Source: a virus (Duplodnaviria; Caudoviricetes). From it: DNA of 64,000 nt. Position numbers and translations under genes: made by a program. Below, piece after piece: positions 19,741 through 62,900 of the stretch. Location: IMG/VR virus record IMGVR_UViG_3300042258_000071, positions 32,001-96,000 of that record. The stretch is one strand, 5' to 3'. The notes beneath the pieces were generated by a model that made no database searches, was not told the origin of the DNA, and saw only the letters and a program-made list of their open reading frames with translations. Position 1 is the first letter of the stretch. Each line of letters starts with the position of its first letter.

Positions 19741-20095
19741 CGTACTATTCCATAAAGGTTCGGTATCTCCTTCATGCGCAGCATAACCTGCAGCTATGGC
19801 TTTCACCATAGACTAGATCATATCTTTACCTTGAGTCATATGACTGTTAGGTAACTCCCATTTCGAGACCCCTTGGTCCTACAGGCTGACAAAGCCTTGA
19901 TCGTTGAACGTTCATCTTAAGGATGTCTCACGACAGTCTTAAGACACTTCGCTGCTGGTTGCCCAATCTTCACATTTTTCAAACTATCACGCTTGTCGTT
20001 ACCAACTACGTTGTAGTATGTAAAGCTCTAAGGGGGTTCTAGCAATTAGAGAGCATTCACTTAAAACTTTTCAGTTAAAAGCGGACAAATAGTTT
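19741..20095 (-). ncRNA. Group I intron (IA-like, 355 nt, no ORF) in the RNAP beta-like gene
   Basis: 5' exon ends in U (GAC GAU) and the intron ends in G. P AAUUGCUAGAA, Q AACCAGCAGC, R GUUCAACGAUCA, S AAGAUAUGAUCU; GAAA-capped P2 and P9; P7.1/P7.2 hairpins. Splicing gives in-frame TQDD-GKRLSF. Confidence 0.9.
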
Positions 20096-23000
20096 ATCGT
20101 CTTGAGTGCCACCTGGCATAAGAAGAGCTGGTGTACTTAGAATGTTAGAAGGTTCTAAATCGCTAGAAGCCTGCTGTTCACCATACATCCCTCGGGTGTT
20201 AATAATGCGAGGGTTTGCAGACATGTAGGCATTAAAAGCAACTTTTCCAGAATCAGGTACAGACTCAGAAAGAATTCCTACACCATCTTTAGGATACTGA
20301 CGATCCGTAATCACAAATGATTGTTGCGACCGACCACCGGCACCCCCATATGTTGTTTGTGTTTTAGATTTGATATCATGAATGGGGTTAATACTGTCAA
20401 CTGGTTGTAGAGTAGGATCTTGAACAATAGATAGGAAAACTGCTTCAGGGTTGATAGAGAAACTCTTATTAGGATCACGACTAGCTTGATATCGAGCAAA
20501 TTCACGTGCCATAGCGTTATAAACGAAATATGGGAATCGTTCATATCCGCGTGTTCTAAAGTTTTCTAAACTAGAAGCATCTTTTGCTTCCACTGTTGAG
20601 AGCATTTCTGTTGCTCGATACAGGAGACCCTTAACTGTAGTAGGTTCCCCCATGCTAATCAAAACTTCCCGTGTAATAGGATCTACAAATAGATCAAAAA
20701 AACTGTTGATCCCTTTTAGAATATTTGTAGAGTGACCTGCATCAGAGAGTAGTGTGAAGTAAGTATCGACGATATCAAAATCGTCAAGATTCCAAGCTCT
20801 CGTTTCAAAGCGCTTAAGGCCACTTAAAATAAGAGACCCTGTAAGAGGGTATCTTGAAAAGACAAGTTTCCCATCTTTAAAGGGGATCATGATGTCATCT
20901 AGTTTAACAATAGCCCGTTTACCTGTTGGGTAAAACCTATAGGGGTGTTTAATATCTTTAAGAAGTGTTGAGAGACCAAATCGATATCCTAAGAAAAATG
21001 CAATCGGCCATGATTTATCTTGAAGTTTAATCTCAACCCATTCAGAAGGTGTTTTAGAAAGAGGAATCTGATCCCCATACAAAGTATTTAGAAGCTCTCG
21101 TATGGTAAACATCTCAACTGGGTGATCTTTGTCTTTGACACTGATAACGCGAATGATGTTATCTTTACCATAGAACATACTGTCACCATTCTTCTCACCA
21201 CAGAAAACCCCATATTTTTCTTCTAGAGGTTCACGGTACTTTTGAAGGAGACTACTTTGGTCTATTGCTTCAGTTGCAAGTTGAAGAGTTGTTGCAGTAA
21301 GACGATTTTTATAATTAAATGTGAAATGATAATCGTTTAATTTAAGACGACCATAACTCCCCATGAGGACCCCATAATCATACGGGACCTTATCTTCGGT
21401 AGAACTTGTTCCAAATTCAAGATAAATAAGACCTGCCTTCTTAAGAGAGGAGATGTATTTCTTGATACTAGATTTAAAGCTATATGCTGCGCGTTGAGTT
21501 CTTTCTACAAGTGCTTTATTAAAATTAGATGAAAGGTTAACACGATGAGGACTTACTTTGCAGATCGGTAGATTGATCTGTTGCTTCGTCATTCGATAGT
21601 CCACCCCATTGACCCTAATGGTTCCTTCCGGACTCACAATAGGTAGTCTAAAACGACACGTATGTCGCTTTCCCTTGGGATCTTTAAAAGTTATGGTGTA
21701 ATGCCTAATATAATTAAACTCAGTAATTTCATCTTCTTCTTTAACGTCTTGAAGTATCATCCCAACGCCACTAAAAGAAGATAAAACAAGGGCAACATCT
21801 CGGTTGAGAGATTCTCGAATATAAACATTGTCAAAATCCATAATAGAAGATTTCGTCATGGATTTATCTTCAACATAATCTTCTAAGAAAGAGAGTTCTA
21901 CTGATGGATCAGTGTTAGGTTCCGTGTTGAGATATGACGCAATGCTTCTACCAGCAAGATCGATATTGGCATAATGGTTCTCAGCTTCTAAGACCGTTTC
22001 TTTCTGTTTAGAAGTGAGGTTAAGATTCGGATCATTTAAGATGCTTTTAAGTGATGTTGAAATATATTCATTGTGGTCTGGAGCATCCACATAAGAACTT
22101 ACAGGAAGAGGGTCTTCTGGGAGTAAAGATTTAGTGTCAATTGTTGAGAGGTCTGTACTTTGATAAAGAGTGTGTTCAATGGGGAGATCTGTTGGGTCTA
22201 CCGGAACATCTTCTACGTCATCGGCGTCCTCCATGACATCCGTTAAAGTAGAAGTTACACTATCTGCAAATTTATCAATATCTTCATCTGTAAAGTCATC
22301 GTCTAAATTTTGAGTAGTGTCGTCCTCATTTCTAGGTTCAGATTGATTATCTTTCTTTTCTTTAAGGTCTTCAAGAAGGTCAGCTGCTTTAAACTTCATG
22401 ACGTTAACATGTCGAATCATCATGATGTTGTCAGTTTTATTAGGCAACATTAAAGGGAGATCACCAAGATTATAGATGATACCATCTGATGACTGTCCAC
22501 ATGTTAAAATGACATGGATGCGATCAAGATGATCTTTTATATCAGGAATCTTAAAAAGGGAGGTTGTAGCATTCTGAGTTACAATCCCTAGCAAATGGAT
22601 CATGTAGTAATACGAGGGATCCCCTACAACCTTAAGGGATGCAGGCGTAATTTCCTCAAAAGCTCTTAGGAACTGTTCACGTTTAAGGGGTTCTGCTGAA
22701 ATAGGAATTTGAATGAACTGGAGTTTCTCAGGATGACTTTCTGCAATTTTAAGTATTTGATACAACATGGATTTCAAAAGAAGATCCATCTTACGATAAG
22801 CTACAAGTCGACCTGTCATGTAAGTATACAAGAGCGGGTTGTAACTAAAAATGGATAATGCATTTTTACGAGATAAGATCTGTTTTACATCTGTCATACG
22901 TTTTGTAAGTTTACTTGTCTGATTGAATTTTTGAATTTGACTGTTAAATTTTACAGCATTGTGAATGTAGTTTCCAATTGGTGCTAACTGTTTATCATCT

Positions 23001-25898: not shown

Positions 25899-26261
25899 CC
25901 TTTATATTCCATAAAGGATCGGTCGCCCCTTATGCGCAGCATAACCTGCAGCTATGACTTTCATCATAGAGTAGACTATATCTTCACTATAGGTTGTGTG
26001 GTGTAACCCTTAAGTGTCTCCTATTTCGGGTCCCTTGACCCTACTCCCCGCTACGGGATAGTCGTTGAACGTTCACCATACTACTGTCGTCACGACATGT
26101 ATAAGGCGCTTCGCTGCTGATCATCCATTGTAACATTTGATACCTTTTTGAACTATCACGCTCACCTTTTCAGGTCACGTTGTAGTGTATCAACTTTAGG
26201 ACTTTCCAGCAATTAAGGAGATATCATCTTAGCTATTTCTAACTAAGTGGACTATCAATTA
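25899..26261 (-). ncRNA. Group I intron (IA-like, 363 nt, no ORF) inside the RNAP catalytic motif
   Basis: Exon ends GCU GAU and the intron ends ...AAAGG. P AAUUGCUGGAAA, Q GAUCAGCAGC, R GUUCAACGACUA, S AAGAUAUAGUCU; P3 UCUCCU/AGGAGA; a plausible P1 with U.G at the splice site. Confidence 0.92.
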
Positions 26262-27818
26262 ATCAGCTCCAAGCCCCCCAAGGGCACTTGTATGAACAAT
26301 CGTACTATCTAAAAATCCGTCATTAGCATCTAAAGATGGATAATGTGGATACTCAGCATCGTCCTCACCTGTAATGAGGTCATACAGTTTAACGGTGCGA
26401 GAGTTGGATGTTGAGTTAAGGTGTATTTTAGCAGGATAACATGATCCATCTTCAATAGCAGGGTACCGCGTCACCATAGCGTATTTATTAAATGTGGCGA
26501 TATACGTTGCAAGATATACGATCTCAGCCCATGTGATGGGGCGGAGTTTTGTACGATCAACTTTTTTACCTAAATTCTTCTCAAGATCGCCAAGACTCCT
26601 AACGATGGAAATTCGATCACCTTGATCATATACCAAGCAAAGGTAGAAAGGTTTCTTATCACGATTATAAATAGTGACAGCTGACCGTCGAACATCTTCA
26701 TTTGAGAACCGAGTTAACCACTTGTTAATACCTGTCCTTGTAACGAATTTATCTTTTTCTAATTGAGAGATTTCTGTATATACAAGATTTAAAGTTTTAG
26801 GATCAGTGAGAGGAACATTAACCTCATCACTCTCTCCTAAGATGGGGGTGAAAAACGCTGTCTTAAGATGGTGGATAACGAAGGGCTCCATCCCTTTGCA
26901 GGATTGATAAAGTCCTACCATAACTTCATCAGGTTTAAGAGACCGTGGATCATCAGGAGAATCCATCACATAACTTGCAGCACTTAGAACATTACGAGTT
27001 CCAAATGCCACTGAACGTGATCCATACCCACCATTTTGCATGAATCCTCGTTTACCAGTTTGGAAGTTCTCAAGGTAATCATAAACTTCAATAGCTTTCT
27101 CTTGAAGTTTATATCGAACTTGATTATAAATAGGGTTAACTGTTTTTTCTGGAATAGATAAACTTAAAGATATCATACTCCGATAGAGCTTGTTTATTTC
27201 ATCTTGCACCATGCGCGCACCAGACTCGATTCGAATATCTCGAAATCCTGCAGGAAGAACGATGTACTTATTAATAAGAGAAACCTCTCGATACTGATTT
27301 AAGAGGGTGACTCGGTTTTCACGTTTGAGGGATTCTGTTAAAGGAAATTCAATTTCATGATAGTGCGATAAGAAGAACGCATAACCTGTTCCGGCATCTT
27401 CAACATCCTCTGGATCCCCAACAACACGTTCAAAATTTTTTATCTCAGAGTTAAATGTTGCATAAACACGCCCTGCTAAAATGTCGTCATACAGAGAACT
27501 TATTTTGATGAGATTTTTATAAATAATAGGAGCGATGATGTTACTGCTTAGAGGGAGGAACCCAAATTTCTTCATGCGATCATCTGAACCCACTGCCCCA
27601 AAGATTTCTTCTGAGAAGAGACCGTCTTTATGAAAGAGCGTTGTTGATGGTTCTAAGACATCAAATGACGTTACCGCTGCAATAATATTTTTCTGAACAA
27701 AGTCATCTACATCCATAACGCGGATGTTAAAAGGTCCATAACCGGAATTTTTCATATTCGATAAATCTTCAAGCCCTTTAGACCGATTCACAATATCGAA
27801 TGGAATTTGCTGTACCAT
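26262..27818 (-). CDS. rpoC: Virion RNA polymerase beta'-like subunit (phiKZ gp180-like), exon 1 (spliced product about 581 aa)
   Basis: DGLFSEEIFG, VLPAGFRD, GKRGFMQ, GTRNVLSA and VTRYPA; ends GLGAD at the intron. Confidence 0.9.
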
Positions 27819-53994: not shown

Positions 53995-55605
53995 TTATCC
54001 CCGATTTGATAGTTTGCTCATGCAGATCAAGAAAAAAGTGTCAAGAGGATCAATAATAAAATAACCTGTCCGTGTCTTTGGACTGTGACCACATTTAGGA
54101 CAATCCCAGGTTGGGACGCCAATGTGTGTAAGTTTATGGTCGTGGATCGCATCTAAAATTGCATTGATAACAATATTGTCTTCATCTTCAACTTGGATAC
54201 GATCAAGAGCAAGTTCTACATCTTCAGGGAGATCGATCTCAGCTGTCTTACCTTCTCCAAGTTTCAAATATACCTTAGAGACCCAAGGGGTAAACTGTTT
54301 AAGAGCACGACTTTTAATAGCCTGTTGAACAGTAGTTGGATCGTTATCTGTAAGATTAGAAGAAACCTCCCGAATGAAACGATCTCCACATTCATTGTAA
54401 TCATACCAACTTGGAGATTTCATAACGACAGTGAATCGTCCCCAAGTGATATGGTTATCCTCCCCATCAAGACCCCCATCAATAAAGGGTACGAGCTTCT
54501 GATACTCCGCAATCTGAGCTTGTGTAACCTCAAGTTTCATCGCGCGTTGCATGTGAGAGATAGCATCTGGAGATAGTTTTTCAAAACTATGAATGATACA
54601 TTCTCGAAGATCAATTGTTCCACTGACGATATGGTCACAATTCTTATCTGGATTAATACATGAGTACTGTGCAGCATCATATCCATCAGGATACATCATA
54701 GAAGCGAGGGCCATGAGGATCGTGTCATAATCTTCAACACGCACACTTTTAACAAGATTATCCCCCCGATCCCAGGACTTCAATGTGGATCCAACAACAT
54801 GTGACCGCCAAAGTTTCATAGCGGCATGTTTTAGAAAATAATCGATATATGTAAAGAAGAATGCACCATAAGAACGTCCGATCGATTGTACATTAGAATA
54901 TGCACTATCTACGTAATTGCGTAATGACGATAATGATGGAGATATGAGATCTATGCAAAATCCACTATTAAGAAGCGGGACCCTAAGAGTTGATCCCTTC
55001 TTAGACGTATCTTGCAGGGCAATAAGAGCGTCAATGCCCGTTACTTTAGTAATACCTTCCCCCAACTCTTTAAACTTAGGTTTGGCAAGTCCGATGGTCT
55101 TACGACCTTCTTTATTAACGTAACTCGATGATAATTTACGATCATTCTTCTTTGCAAGACCGATGCGTGTTGCCCGGGATAAAATTTCAGGGGTTTCAGT
55201 GCACATGCGGGCTAAGATATTGTCATAAGATCCGTTCTTAGAGGACTCCAATTCAAAGGCACTCTCTGAATTAAAGTAATCAATTCTTCGCTCTAAACAG
55301 GTGAGAAGAACTTCTTTCTCAAACCCAAATACTGGAATAAATATTCCAACATCATGATCATCGTCAAATAACCCTGAGGTCTCCTCATCCGTAGGAGTGT
55401 CCTCATTGTAGTCAAGGTCAATATCAAGCTCCTGATCTTTATGTGAAGCAGTTTCAGGTTCAACCTTTTTAGTATCAAGGGGTTCTAACGGATCTGACTG
55501 CTTCTCTTTAGGAGGCTCAGATGGAACAGTCGTATCTTTAAGAATGTCTTCATCATGAGAAGATACTGAGTGATCTTCTGGTACAGGCGTGTCTTCATGA
55601 GACAT
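53995..55605 (-). CDS. Baseplate hub assembly-like protein with Zn ribbons
   Basis: VPLLNSGF, DYDTILMALASMMYPDGY, CINPDKNC, CPKCG; acidic N-terminus. Confidence 0.55.
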   Translation of the reverse strand: MSHEDTPVPEDHSVSSHDEDILKDTTVPSEPPKEKQSDPLEPLDTKKVEPETASHKDQELDIDLDYNEDTPTDEETSGLFDDDHDVGIFIPVFGFEKEVLLTCLERRIDYFNSESAFELESSKNGSYDNILARMCTETPEILSRATRIGLAKKNDRKLSSSYVNKEGRKTIGLAKPKFKELGEGITKVTGIDALIALQDTSKKGSTLRVPLLNSGFCIDLISPSLSSLRNYVDSAYSNVQSIGRSYGAFFFTYIDYFLKHAAMKLWRSHVVGSTLKSWDRGDNLVKSVRVEDYDTILMALASMMYPDGYDAAQYSCINPDKNCDHIVSGTIDLRECIIHSFEKLSPDAISHMQRAMKLEVTQAQIAEYQKLVPFIDGGLDGEDNHITWGRFTVVMKSPSWYDYNECGDRFIREVSSNLTDNDPTTVQQAIKSRALKQFTPWVSKVYLKLGEGKTAEIDLPEDVELALDRIQVEDEDNIVINAILDAIHDHKLTHIGVPTWDCPKCGHSPKTRTGYFIIDPLDTFFLICMSKLSNRG

Positions 55606-59117: not shown

Positions 59118-59150
59118 ATAAGAGGAGTGGGGATTCCCCACTCCTCTTAT
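59118..59150. terminator. Long palindromic stem-loop between convergent genes
   Basis: ATAAGAGGAGTGGGGA-T-TCCCCACTCCTCTTAT; overlaps the rnhA stop codon. Confidence 0.75.
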
Positions 59151-59854
59151 GTCTTCGTTTTATTTCTAAGATAGGATGCATTTAACTTTTTAGATAGCGC
59201 ATCTGGTAGTTTTAAATTCACCACAGATTGCACTTTCTGTTTAATATCTGTAGTAATGACATTTTCTTTCTCAGGTCTTTTAAGTTTACCGCATTTCATA
59301 TCTAGAGTGAGTTGGGAGCAGATTTTGTCAACTGAATCATTATACCGATTTTCACCTGTATGAGATTTTATATGGAAAGCTCTAATCATGAATTTATTCT
59401 TAAGCTCATAGAGCCGCTTCATAAGGTCCATGTTTTTGACTTTTCCACCAGAAGCAGTTCTCCAATTGGATCCTTTCCAATAGTTGATCCACACCATGAT
59501 CGACATAACTGCATACAAACTATCACTTACAATAACAATTTTCGCAACTGGATCTGGAATGGCCTCTAAGCCTTTAATGATAGCTGTAAGTTCCATACGT
59601 GAAATGGTCGTATCAAATTCATGTCCAGATAGAATTTCACGTTCATCATAATCACTATCTAAAATAATTGTTGCCCACGCTCCGTAACATGGAGGCCTAA
59701 ACGATCCATCGGTATAGATAGTGTACTGAGGAACATCATGCTTTTTAAGTTTACGAGAAGACACTTTAGATTTCTTAGGAACATTCTCAGAAGTCTTCTT
59801 TTTGGAAGTGCTAGCTCTCTTAGATACAGTTACAGTAGGAGGTATATGTGACAT
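59147..59854 (-). CDS. rnhA: Ribonuclease HI with basic terminal extensions
   Basis: IYTDGS, RMELTAII, VSDSLY, VKNMDL, KSH, NDSVD. Confidence 0.92.
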   Translation of the reverse strand: MSHIPPTVTVSKRASTSKKKTSENVPKKSKVSSRKLKKHDVPQYTIYTDGSFRPPCYGAWATIILDSDYDEREILSGHEFDTTISRMELTAIIKGLEAIPDPVAKIVIVSDSLYAVMSIMVWINYWKGSNWRTASGGKVKNMDLMKRLYELKNKFMIRAFHIKSHTGENRYNDSVDKICSQLTLDMKCGKLKRPEKENVITTDIKQKVQSVVNLKLPDALSKKLNASYLRNKTKT

Positions 59855-59948: not shown

Positions 59949-59966
59949 TATACATTACTGATATGA
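59949..59966 (+). promoter_or_regulatory. Putative early promoter variant TATACATTACTGATATGA
   Basis: Degenerate motif copy upstream of ORF 60045. Confidence 0.45.
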
Positions 59967-60044: not shown

Positions 60045-60347
60045 ATGACTGATACTAATACCACCAAGAACCCAAGCACAGATACAGATACCGCACACCC
60101 ACCGGCGTTGGACGATCTGTCCTTTTTGTATACCACTACGGCCGGTGAAGGTGACAACATTGTCACCTTCAAAGAACAAGACTTTTTCAAGTTTCGGCAG
60201 GAACTTGAAGCGTCTGCCGCCAGACGTGGCGTTTGGAAAGGTGCCGGTATTACTCTCGCCACCGTTGCGGTGGTCGGGGCCGCTCTATGGGCGATCCCAA
60301 AAATGGTAGGTGGTGGGGGTGGAGACACCTCCCCTGCTGAAGTCTAA
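60045..60347 (+). CDS. C-terminally anchored membrane protein
   Basis: 100 aa; AAGGAG RBS; TM segment GAGITLATVAVVGAALWAI; higher GC than flanking sequence. Confidence 0.75.
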   Translation: MTDTNTTKNPSTDTDTAHPPALDDLSFLYTTTAGEGDNIVTFKEQDFFKFRQELEASAARRGVWKGAGITLATVAVVGAALWAIPKMVGGGGGDTSPAEV

Positions 60348-60353
60348 CAACTC

Positions 60354-60390
60354 AAGATAACCACGGAGGGTTACCCTCCGTGGTTATCTT
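60354..60390. terminator. Long palindromic stem-loop
   Basis: AAGATAACCACGGAGGGT-T-ACCCTCCGTGGTTATCTT. Confidence 0.75.
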
Positions 60391-60415: not shown

Positions 60416-60499
60416 ATGGCAAACTTCATCTATTTTATATTTGCAGTGATAGGTTTGATATACGTATTTCATCTGGCTTTTCGCGGCAGAAATATGTAA
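60416..60499 (+). CDS. 27-aa hydrophobic peptide MANFIYFIFAVIGLIYVFHLAFRGRNM
   Basis: AGGT SD-like sequence upstream; one TM-length helix with a basic C-terminus; below the ORF-track size cutoff. Confidence 0.5.
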   Translation: MANFIYFIFAVIGLIYVFHLAFRGRNM

Positions 60500-60516: not shown

Positions 60517-60948
60517 AGCACATACAGGTCATCATCTTCATCCTGTATGTGCGTGACTTATACACATATACTTTTTGATTTTATAAAAGTATATCTTTAT
60601 ATGTCTCAAGCTTAAGTATATCAGAATTCATGTTGCCTTAGATCCCTGTTAAGTGCTACGAATAGGGTCTCCCGTATGTCATATACAGGGTATGAGTGTA
60701 ACATGAATAGGAGAGGGGTGTTTGGAGTTTGAGATCCCAGACATGCTTCTCTTAAGATTTCTATGATGTGGGCTAGTCAGGTATGCGCCCTTTCCATAGA
60801 AATCTACGAGGACTGGAGGTGATATGATGAAGGTCATCTCCAGTCCTCACCCTATACTTGTTGTTCACTCAACAAGGAAACTCGAAGAGAGATACATCCA
60901 GGTGTCGTTCCCCCAGAACCCATGGATGTGTCTCTCTTCTTTTTTTTT
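60517..60948 (+). ncRNA. Candidate large structured RNA of unknown class
   Basis: Eight consecutive stem domains, many G.U pairs on the + strand, two possible loop pairings, and a U9 terminator at the end. Confidence 0.6.
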
Positions 60949-60968
60949 GTAAATAATTTAATAGGTAG

Positions 60969-61004
60969 AGATAAGAGAGGTGGGATCTCCCACCTCTCTT
61001 ATCT
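60969..61004. terminator. Long palindromic stem-loop ending the lysis operon
   Basis: AGATAAGAGAGGTGGGA-TC-TCCCACCTCTCTTATCT. Confidence 0.75.
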
Positions 61005-61027
61005 TATTTTTTTTTATGGTAAAGAAT

Positions 61028-61507
61028 TTATTTACCTGACTCTTTAGGTTGCACATCTTTTGTGATAGGAACTTCCACTTCTTTGACAAACAAATCTTTA
61101 AACGTGTCACTTCTATAATAATCAAATAACTGATTACTCTGTTCGATATACCGAAGGATGTCTTGGTTGTAAGATCCTAAAAGAAGGTAATCTTTTTCAG
61201 TAAGACCATAATACACAAAAGGACCATTAGAGCTTAATATTAAAACACATTCACGTTGAGCATCTTCAGTGGTCGTAACTTTCTTACAAATGGTCTGGGG
61301 AGTAAGAACGGTAATGGTGTCAATGTGTCCTAAGTTTCGAATCGGAGTAGGCTTTGCAGGGTGAAAGACACTAATCGGTTGCGTGCGTTTCTCCACGACT
61401 AGCGGCTCTGATACTGTCGAGCACGCGATTAGTGGCAGCAGTAGCAAGACGACTGATGGCTTCAGGGTTTTGAAGAGCGATACGATCCAATCGCTCACGA
61501 TACTCAT
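61028..61507 (-). CDS. o-spanin (outer-membrane lipoprotein)
   Basis: Lipoprotein signal ...VVLLLLPLIA-C; Pro-rich mature region; overlaps the i-spanin 3' end in another frame. Confidence 0.75.
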   Translation of the reverse strand: MSIVSDWIVSLFKTLKPSVVLLLLPLIACSTVSEPLVVEKRTQPISVFHPAKPTPIRNLGHIDTITVLTPQTICKKVTTTEDAQRECVLILSSNGPFVYYGLTEKDYLLLGSYNQDILRYIEQSNQLFDYYRSDTFKDLFVKEVEVPITKDVQPKESGK

Positions 61508-61835
61508 TGAGTTGAGCAATCTGATCATCACGTGACTCCTGTACGCGTTGATAGTCTTGCGTTAAGGTGTTATATTTTTGTTGTTCTAGTTCTCTAACTT
61601 GATCATACAACTTGATTTGCTGATTAAGTCCTCGAACTTCACCTTCTAAACGCACCATGTCACTTTGTTTAATACCTAGTTCTATATTTAAATTCTGATT
61701 TTCGCTATGGAGTATGGATATGGTCACACCTAGTCCAACGATCGTAAGAATGAGACCAACCACAATGAGAATTTTAACAGGACCTGGAATAAACGACATG
61801 GCTTTAGAGGCGATCGATGTTACCACACCAAACAT
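61371..61835 (-). CDS. i-spanin (Rz-like)
   Basis: N-terminal TM followed by a long coiled coil. Confidence 0.75.
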   Translation of the reverse strand: MFGVVTSIASKAMSFIPGPVKILIVVGLILTIVGLGVTISILHSENQNLNIELGIKQSDMVRLEGEVRGLNQQIKLYDQVRELEQQKYNTLTQDYQRVQESRDDQIAQLNEYRERLDRIALQNPEAISRLATAATNRVLDSIRAASRGETHATD

Positions 61836-61840
61836 GTTAA

Positions 61841-62347
61841 TTATCCCTCTTCTTTTTTATCTTCTTGTTTTGAAAGAATTTGATCAAATATCTGAATCTT
61901 ATCATCCCAGACAGCATTAAAGACATAAGCTCCTAAAATAAGCGATAGGGCAAGGAGGGAATATGATGCAGATGCTTCTGCAACTGCCGTTTGACTTTTA
62001 GTATACAAAGGGAGAAATCCAAAGATCATCAAACTGCAAGTTACGATATACAAATACATTTTACGATAGAACCATTTTGTATGTTTTAAAAATTCAGGTT
62101 CTTCATAGGTGACTTTTTTTCTCTGAGAATCTGACACAACAGCGCCTGTTACATAGATCATAGTGTTTATAACCAACGCAGCGATCCCGGTTTTAACGGA
62201 CGATATAGCAGGGAGAGTATCTAAGTTAAAATATAGAGAATACAAGATGATCCCGATCATATAAAACGAAATAACAAACAGATAGATCCTCCGATCTCGC
62301 CATGTTGTTAAATCTTTATACGAGTTAGATTTACCTGTCGTTGTCAT
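61841..62347 (-). CDS. Putative holin (4 TM, internally duplicated)
   Basis: WRDRRIY...YVTGAVVSD and WFYRKMY...YVFNAVWDD; charged C-terminus; lies between the endolysin and the spanins. Confidence 0.65.
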   Translation of the reverse strand: MTTTGKSNSYKDLTTWRDRRIYLFVISFYMIGIILYSLYFNLDTLPAISSVKTGIAALVINTMIYVTGAVVSDSQRKKVTYEEPEFLKHTKWFYRKMYLYIVTCSLMIFGFLPLYTKSQTAVAEASASYSLLALSLILGAYVFNAVWDDKIQIFDQILSKQEDKKEEG

Positions 62348-62900
62348 AGAAGGATATTGTTAGATCGCCAGCTTGCGCTGCAGCGATCACTTTCTTATAC
62401 AATCTTTCGTATGCAATGGCAGAGCTGCCAATAGACATATTTTGTGCATTGGCAGATGTTCCAACTAAGAGACACCCATTTGTATTACGATCAAAGTTTC
62501 CAACATGAATCAAAATATCTGTGAATCCTGGGACGCCTTTAATTTCAAGCATCCCTTGGTGGAAGTCTTTAAAACGAGAATCTTCCGAATATCGACTGTG
62601 GAACCCCCCAAATGTACGAACAATAACTTTGTAGGTACCTGCCGGGATACGCGTTTCACCAAAGACTTTCTGTTTAAGAGGTCGATACTCATCTTCAAGA
62701 CCATAACATTCAAATTTTTTGTCGATACTTATACGAGATAGCGTGGCATTAGGGTTTCCAAGATAACGGTCAACTTCTAAATGCATGGAGGACTCCTTTG
62801 GGAGATGGTGTGGAGACACAGTAATGTGTGGGGTAGGTGGGGTTTTAGGAGAACGAGTGAAGATATTTATTAAGAATTTAAGTACAGATTTCACACACAT
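62331..62900 (-). CDS. Endolysin, DUF5675-type putative L,D-peptidase
   Basis: GLEDE, GETRIPAGTY, ILIHVGN...TNGCLLVG (His/Cys); first gene of the lysis cassette. Confidence 0.75.
   Translation of the reverse strand: MCVKSVLKFLINIFTRSPKTPPTPHITVSPHHLPKESSMHLEVDRYLGNPNATLSRISIDKKFECYGLEDEYRPLKQKVFGETRIPAGTYKVIVRTFGGFHSRYSEDSRFKDFHQGMLEIKGVPGFTDILIHVGNFDRNTNGCLLVGTSANAQNMSIGSSAIAYERLYKKVIAAAQAGDLTISFYDNDR

Follow-up and report, generated by a model that had tools for sequence, protein, structure and literature searches.

We identified an RNA of ~420 nt in the genome of an uncultured phiKZ-like phage. It consists of eight hairpins (a to h) that are under selection on the + strand and carry conserved loops. 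The RNA is real, conserved and apparently undescribed, and while its function is only inferred, we are confident that it is a functional structured RNA. The window analysed here is a 64-kb stretch of a complete virus genome of 236,443 bp with direct terminal repeats; positions are those of the window unless a contig or the genome is named. The RNA locus lies between an RNase H gene and a convergent lysis cassette (Table 1).

The + strand of the RNA folds with -177 kcal/mol (z -10.3), and in the comparison with shuffled sequences that an earlier note on this DNA had called for, 0 of 100 shuffles folded as well. In a GC-corrected genome-wide scan the two best 300-nt windows both fell on the RNA locus, with robust z of -8.9 and -6.5, and the next unrelated window reached z -4.5; the most structured stretch of the genome is thus 60518-60939 (+). 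The - strand folds more weakly (-152 kcal/mol), and over a slightly longer stretch the same was observed in a related phage (-196 on the + strand vs -163 on the - strand). G-U pairs are also more numerous on the + strand, in agreement with the earlier view that they favour a + strand RNA. All eight stems that the earlier note had drawn are present where it placed them, with a T9 run after stem h, but element c, which it had described as a three-way junction, folds in both phages as a single hairpin, long and interrupted, whose loop of 12 nt spans 60661-60672.

Rfam gave nothing at gathering level over the RNA, the outcome that the earlier note had named as support for novelty, and in E-value mode returned weak unrelated matches in both phages. 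ARAGORN found no tRNA in the 64-kb window. For tRNA, tmRNA, RNase P, SRP, 6S and self-splicing introns, neither ARAGORN nor Rfam gave a match at the RNA, consistent with the claim that tRNA or tmRNA ends are lacking, and no long ORF lies inside it, as had also been stated. Elsewhere in the window, two group I introns match Rfam at gathering level, at 19794-20105 and 25952-26270 (-).

Table 1. The eight-hairpin RNA, its parts and its neighbours in the window
Feature	Position	Strand	Observations
RNase H gene	59147-59854	-	Divergent from the small-ORF/RNA unit; arrangement kept in relative
Early-promoter-like motif TATACATTAC	59949-59958	+	Motif at same place in relative, L015:11329
100-aa ORF	60045-60347	+	Hydrophobic segment at C-terminus; 73-aa ORF at corresponding position in relative, not alignable
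Perfect hairpin, 18-nt arms	60354-60390	+	Between the small ORFs; hairpin without U tail in relative
27-aa hydrophobic peptide ORF	60416-60499	+	Basic C-terminus; unannotated; 31-aa homologue in relative
Structured RNA, hairpins a to h in a row	60518-60939	+	Folding, genome scan, homologue
Hairpin a	60518-60552	+	11/11 pairs kept, 1 compensatory; loop CUUCAUC (60536-60542) complementary to loop f
Hairpin b	60555-60605	+	Near-invariant U-rich tip, loop UUUUUGAUUUUA
b-c linker	60610-60617	+	Self-complementary; GCUUAAGU here, GAGUUAAUUC in relative; candidate dimer site
Hairpin c	60626-60708	+	Long, interrupted; conserved loop UAGGRUCUCC, anti-Shine-Dalgarno-like
Hairpin d	60709-60753	+	Length as in relative, sequence largely changed; loop UGAGRU kept
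Hairpin e	60755-60805	+	Conserved 4x4 internal loop AUGU/UUUC; 2/4 inner pairs compensatory
Hairpin f	60808-60848	+	Invariant loop AUGAUGAAG (60824-60832)
Hairpin g	60857-60876	+	Short; pairs in both phages
Hairpin h	60884-60939	+	Conserved loop motif GUUCCCC (60907-60913)
Terminator-like hairpin + T run	60968-61015 (hairpin 60968-61005)		Type repeated through genome; similar one in relative
Convergent lysis cassette	61028-62900	-	Two Rz-like spanins, putative holin, DUF5675 protein (putative endolysin)

Conservation of the hairpins in a related phage

Protein searches found one relative, whose o-spanin and RNase H are 62% and 64% identical to those of this phage and whose proteins neighbouring the RNA are 46-65% identical. 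Its contigs L015 and L016 are from the same sequencing run and overlap at their ends; together they show RNase H, then the promoter motif, the small ORF and the peptide ORF, followed by the RNA, the terminator and the spanins. The relative's RNA (L015 10849-10428, minus) has the same eight hairpins in the same order and place, with a folding z of -9.8; the homologue search suggested earlier found the stems kept in this one relative. Identity between the two RNAs is ~60-68%, varying by alignment.

The stems differ between the phages largely in ways that preserve pairing. Among 66 anchored gap-free pairs outside stem d, 44 are identical, 7 have changed on one side and 15 on both, and 0 are broken; all 7 one-sided changes are to or from G-U. 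Pair counts here use anchored registers or the model alignment, since MAFFT misregistered stems a and h. The outer stem of hairpin c has 5 compensatory and 2 G-U changes in 11 pairs, with 1 of 4 pairs compensatory at its tip, and the 12-bp inner stem of hairpin f has 6 compensatory and 2 G-U changes and 0 broken pairs. Stem d has a length of 17 in both phages, 3 of the 17 positions being unpaired in one phage, and its register is ambiguous. A covariance model built from this window alone recovers the relative at 40.5 bits. In the covariance-model alignment of f-h, 82 of 82 cells pair vs 41-54% with slid partners; as a fitted alignment of two rows, this supports the direct pair count and does not replace it.

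The loops are kept while the stems change: CUUCAUC in a, UUUUUGAUUUUA in b, UAGGRUCUCC in c and UGAGRU in d, together with the AUGU/UUUC internal loop of e, UAUGAUGAAGG in f and GUUCCCC in h. Two readings of single loops were rejected by eye, a C/D-box reading of the C-box-like AUGAUGA in loop f (the matching D box is absent) and a CRISPR-repeat reading of GUUCCCC (the repeat hairpin is absent). Stem h is probably not the terminator, because its loop is conserved, the relative has no long U run and a terminator-like hairpin lies downstream. Many perfect hairpins occur in this genome, and the locus could in principle be a non-functional pile of terminator-like inverted repeats or a structure of the DNA. 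However, the stems are unlike the terminator type of this genome, compensatory and G-U changes accompany a conserved order and conserved loops, and both phages clearly favour one strand, which makes a non-functional origin extremely improbable.

The predicted transcript and its genomic setting

The motif TATAYATTAC occurs 23 times on the + strand of the genome and once on the - strand, where ~1.7 occurrences per strand are expected, and we take it to resemble the phiKZ early (virion-RNAP) promoter. The early-promoter-like motif TATACATTAC at 59949 is the likely promoter of a transcript ending in the RNA. In phiKZ the virion polymerase recognises the early promoter by an extended -10 box (PMC8244752). 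Several genes behind TATAYATTAC carry GGAGAC ribosome-binding sites.

Between this motif and the RNA lie two small ORFs, separated by a hairpin that is a candidate leaky terminator or processing/stabilising hairpin. The second ORF, of 27 codons, is conserved and stops 18 nt before stem a; its peptide shares ~10 of 27 residues with the 31-aa peptide of the relative (aligned by eye, with an in-frame 12-nt indel), and a ribosome-binding site precedes it in both phages. The peptide matches no Pfam family at cut-off and no toxin family. At the same place the gene caller called a 56-aa ORF on the opposite strand instead. Because no conserved promoter directly precedes stem a, the RNA would be the 3′ domain of a transcript or be cut from it. 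It is probably the end of an early transcript encoding two small membrane proteins, and instead of being a gene in its own right it may form the 3′ domain of a small-protein mRNA. The terminator-like hairpin at 60968 is probably shared, ending transcription of the convergent lysis genes as well as this transcript. The compensatory changes, the lack of an Rfam match, the early-promoter motif on the + strand and the terminator together support the earlier proposal of a functional + strand phage RNA convergent with the lysis genes.

A position just past the stop of a conserved peptide, with no promoter of its own seen, is what a cis-acting 3′ domain would have. Such a domain could block exonucleases and/or behave like a type I toxin mRNA, folding back to place loop c over the ribosome-binding sites of both membrane micro-proteins until the transcript is processed. 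The upstream sites can indeed pair with loop c, at -14.1 and -11.9 kcal/mol in the relative and -11.6 and -7.3 in this phage. However, the peptide's own site pairs poorly in this phage, and eight hairpins with six conserved loops exceed what stabilisation needs. Other points against this reading are that the peptide has no toxin family match, that no antisense antitoxin is evident and that a terminator stands between the RNA and the opposing lysis genes. We consider a cis-acting role unlikely.

The wider surroundings are those of a phiKZ-like phage. Its DNA polymerase is of the phiKZ type and, along most of the protein, 22-28% identical to those of named jumbo phages, and the genome contains a weak tubulin match (E 1.6e-4, below cut-off). 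The DNA polymerase gene lies 1.5 kb from the RNase H/RNA locus in an order kept in the relative, and gene order in the lysis cassette is identical in L015. The presence of spanin genes suggests a host that is probably Gram-negative. Between its RNase H and DNA polymerase genes the relative carries an additional gene of 340 aa (L016:817-1839), which is absent from this genome. Another of the relative's proteins, of 657 aa (L016:7430-9403), weakly matches chaperonin (Cpn60); its orthologue here, in the neighbourhood of 53995-55605, is 52% identical.

Loop contacts and possible modes of action

Two long-range pairings had been proposed before a homologue was seen, and they fared differently. Complementarity between loops a and f is present here (7 bp) and kept in the relative (8 bp), although the rest of loop a has changed there. 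In each phage a/f ranks first among the loop-loop helices (-9.3 and -8.5 kcal/mol), and shuffles of loop a against loop f gave p of 0.027 here and 0.002 in the relative; its core is invariant, which in two sequences is conservation without covariation. The 10-bp pairing between the linker and loop d does exist in this phage (-12.7 kcal/mol), but it drops to -2.1 in the relative and was rejected as a conserved contact.

Other contacts are weaker candidates. The longest common helix between unpaired columns, of 7 bp between b and c, was matched in 5 of 300 shuffles, and a U-A to A-U swap was noted near it by eye. It is G-U rich, with -2 to -3.5 kcal/mol, and two other candidate partners compete for loop c; GAUUUUA (60577-60583) in hairpin b is a candidate partner of this loop. 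A candidate c/d contact comprises 5 bp with two G-U changes. The b-c linker is a palindrome in both phages with different flanks, at modest shuffle p values of 0.084 and 0.023, and might favour pairing between molecules. Within the RNA no convincing partner was found for GUUCCCC of loop h. Pairing of loop c with a second candidate RNA at 136.7 kb of the genome was dismissed, as 15.5% of random windows did equally well.

Of the possible functions, we rank first a compact or self-associating RNA that acts as a scaffold or decoy, because several conserved loops have internal partners, the long stems abut, and the phage RNAs GOLLD and ROOL assemble by such contacts. We hold this reading tentatively, at somewhat less than even confidence. 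The virion RNA polymerase would start early at the 59949 promoter and make a transcript of ~1.05 kb that also encodes the two small membrane proteins. The RNA would be the 3′ portion of this transcript, may be cut free from it, and would end either with stem h or with the terminator at 60968. The long stems c, d and e would abut and stack, and loop-loop contacts (a/f being the best supported, b/c and c/d candidates) together with the self-complementary linker would tie the hairpin array into a compact particle or homo-oligomer. Displayed on such a particle, the conserved loops and the internal loop AUGU/UUUC could be recognised by a protein partner; the particle would be a scaffold, or else a decoy that draws off a host RNA-binding or defence protein. 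A more specific version is speculative and distinctly unlikely. In it, the phage would make the self-assembling particle within minutes of infection together with its own membrane micro-proteins, and the particle would act at the membrane, either as part of an RNA-built compartment or as an anti-defence decoy; if true, phages would have their own equivalent of the complex that OLE RNA forms with membrane proteins, built on an unrelated architecture. Time and again, large structured RNAs have proved to be new machines, and this one offers a defined, synthesisable 420-nt target in two natural variants for probing and cryo-EM, with which one can ask simply whether kissing loops turn a plain row of hairpins into a particle.

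The conserved C-rich loops could alternatively act on mRNAs in trans. Staphylococcus aureus RNAIII is a 514-nt RNA of 14 hairpins with a 26-aa peptide and UCCC loops (PMC4152353), and the layout here is similar, a long multi-hairpin RNA with UCCC-type loops on a predicted shared transcript with a short hydrophobic peptide of 27 aa. A dual-function regulator of this kind would combine the membrane peptide with silencing of GGAGA-type ribosome-binding sites by UCUCC of loop c, GUUCCCC of loop h and the f-g linker, with phage early or host mRNAs as targets. In the relative, loop c pairs over 8 bp with two ribosome-binding sites and over 10 bp with a third. GGAGAC makes up 12 of the 77 GGAG sites in this genome vs a 7.7% background, and one orthologous site pair tracks the loop (GGAGAC here, GGAGAU in the relative). 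However, any UCUCC loop pairs with any GGAGA site, and across ~28 orthologous gene pairs the matching of each loop to its own sites is inconsistent, with RNase H and L015:3923 as counter-examples. In addition, partners of loop c exist within the RNA itself. The RNA differs from RNAIII in that it has no Rfam match, its peptide lies upstream of the hairpins, its targets are only candidates and it belongs to a lytic phage of a probably Gram-negative host. Regulation in the manner of RNAIII is accordingly doubtful.

The adjacent RNase H gene and nearby DNA polymerase could also point to a replication primer processed by RNase H, like ColE1 RNA II, and the a/f complementarity to a packaging ring like that of phi29, whose prohead RNA (pRNA), likewise a structural RNA of a phage, forms multimers through paired loops (PMC2241910). 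As in pRNA, two complementary loops of a phage RNA could pair between molecules. The RNA here is nonetheless more than twice as long, has no three-way junction and no pRNA match in Rfam, and comes from an unrelated phage group. No turn in GC- or AT-skew occurs at the RNA locus, by which a replication origin there was also rejected, and the covariance model of f-h gave no match in 35 other large-phage records, from phages that must likewise replicate and package DNA. Both roles are very improbable.

Known RNAs and distribution

The large structured RNAs GOLLD, ROOL and OLE, of unknown function, share with the eight-hairpin RNA covarying stems at low identity. Phage GOLLD and ROOL oligomerise by kissing loops, and palindromic loop contacts have been described for OLE and GOLLD (10.1101/2024.12.08.627333). 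GOLLD and ROOL are phage-encoded, as is the RNA described here, and its candidate loop-loop and possibly palindromic contacts would be comparable, a/f being conserved but invariant and b/c and c/d weak. The differences are in model and architecture. No Rfam covariance model matches; the length is ~420 nt compared with ~600 for OLE and often >800 for GOLLD; and eight separate hairpins stand in a plain row in both homologues, with no multi-branch junction or enclosing helix found. In addition, the RNA follows two small membrane-protein ORFs, and the window has no tRNA genes, near which GOLLD and ROOL often lie. The RNA may work like GOLLD, ROOL and OLE or like RNAIII, but by model and architecture it belongs to none of them.

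Non-coding RNAs have been reported from the same broad phage group, in phiKZ and 201phi2-1, as sRNAs of <250 nt that mostly derive from 5′ UTRs (PMC11512511, PMC8244752), and are thus short, unlike the RNA found here. A retron or DRT non-coding RNA was rejected, the complete genome having no reverse transcriptase (PF00078) match.

The RNA is known from two uncultured phages. Neither version found a further homologue among GenBank phages by blastn, and the genome itself holds no second copy. Scans of viral, metagenome and genome contigs by RNase H, spanins and DNA polymerase yielded none beyond L015, and in four DNA-pattern scans, followed by nhmmer and folding filters, the matches listed were chance or terminator hairpins. 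The RNA is absent from four contigs with distant spanin relatives, two of which are very short. A two-sequence covariance model gave no homologue in the 35 other large-phage records and nothing in a Phikzvirus genome or PhiPA3; covering f-h only and applied with strict filters, it is narrow and could miss distant versions. DNA of the source phage is present in wastewater sequencing runs, with no RNA run among those listed, and DNA contigs from four runs are identical over the RNA, without variants.

Other loci were noted in passing. A second ORF-free structured stretch of ~580 nt outside the window (L377:138-720, G000 136687-137269) has a promoter-like motif, a terminator and a folding z of -5.7, partly owed to the terminator; it has no credible Rfam match and none to the model of the eight-hairpin RNA. 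The longest gap in the genome without an ORF of at least 70 aa spans 956 nt between convergent genes (L378, G000 216224-217179) and likewise has no credible Rfam match. One 125-kb contig in a bin assigned to Ruminococcus flavefaciens (L397) carries a distant relative of the DNA polymerase and is probably a phage contig inside the genome bin. Large IMG/VR phage contigs (L036, L038, L064, L035, L063 and others) carry repeated CATACAGGGAGGG...CCCTCCCTGTATG hairpins, which are probably the terminator type of those contigs and unrelated to the eight-hairpin RNA.
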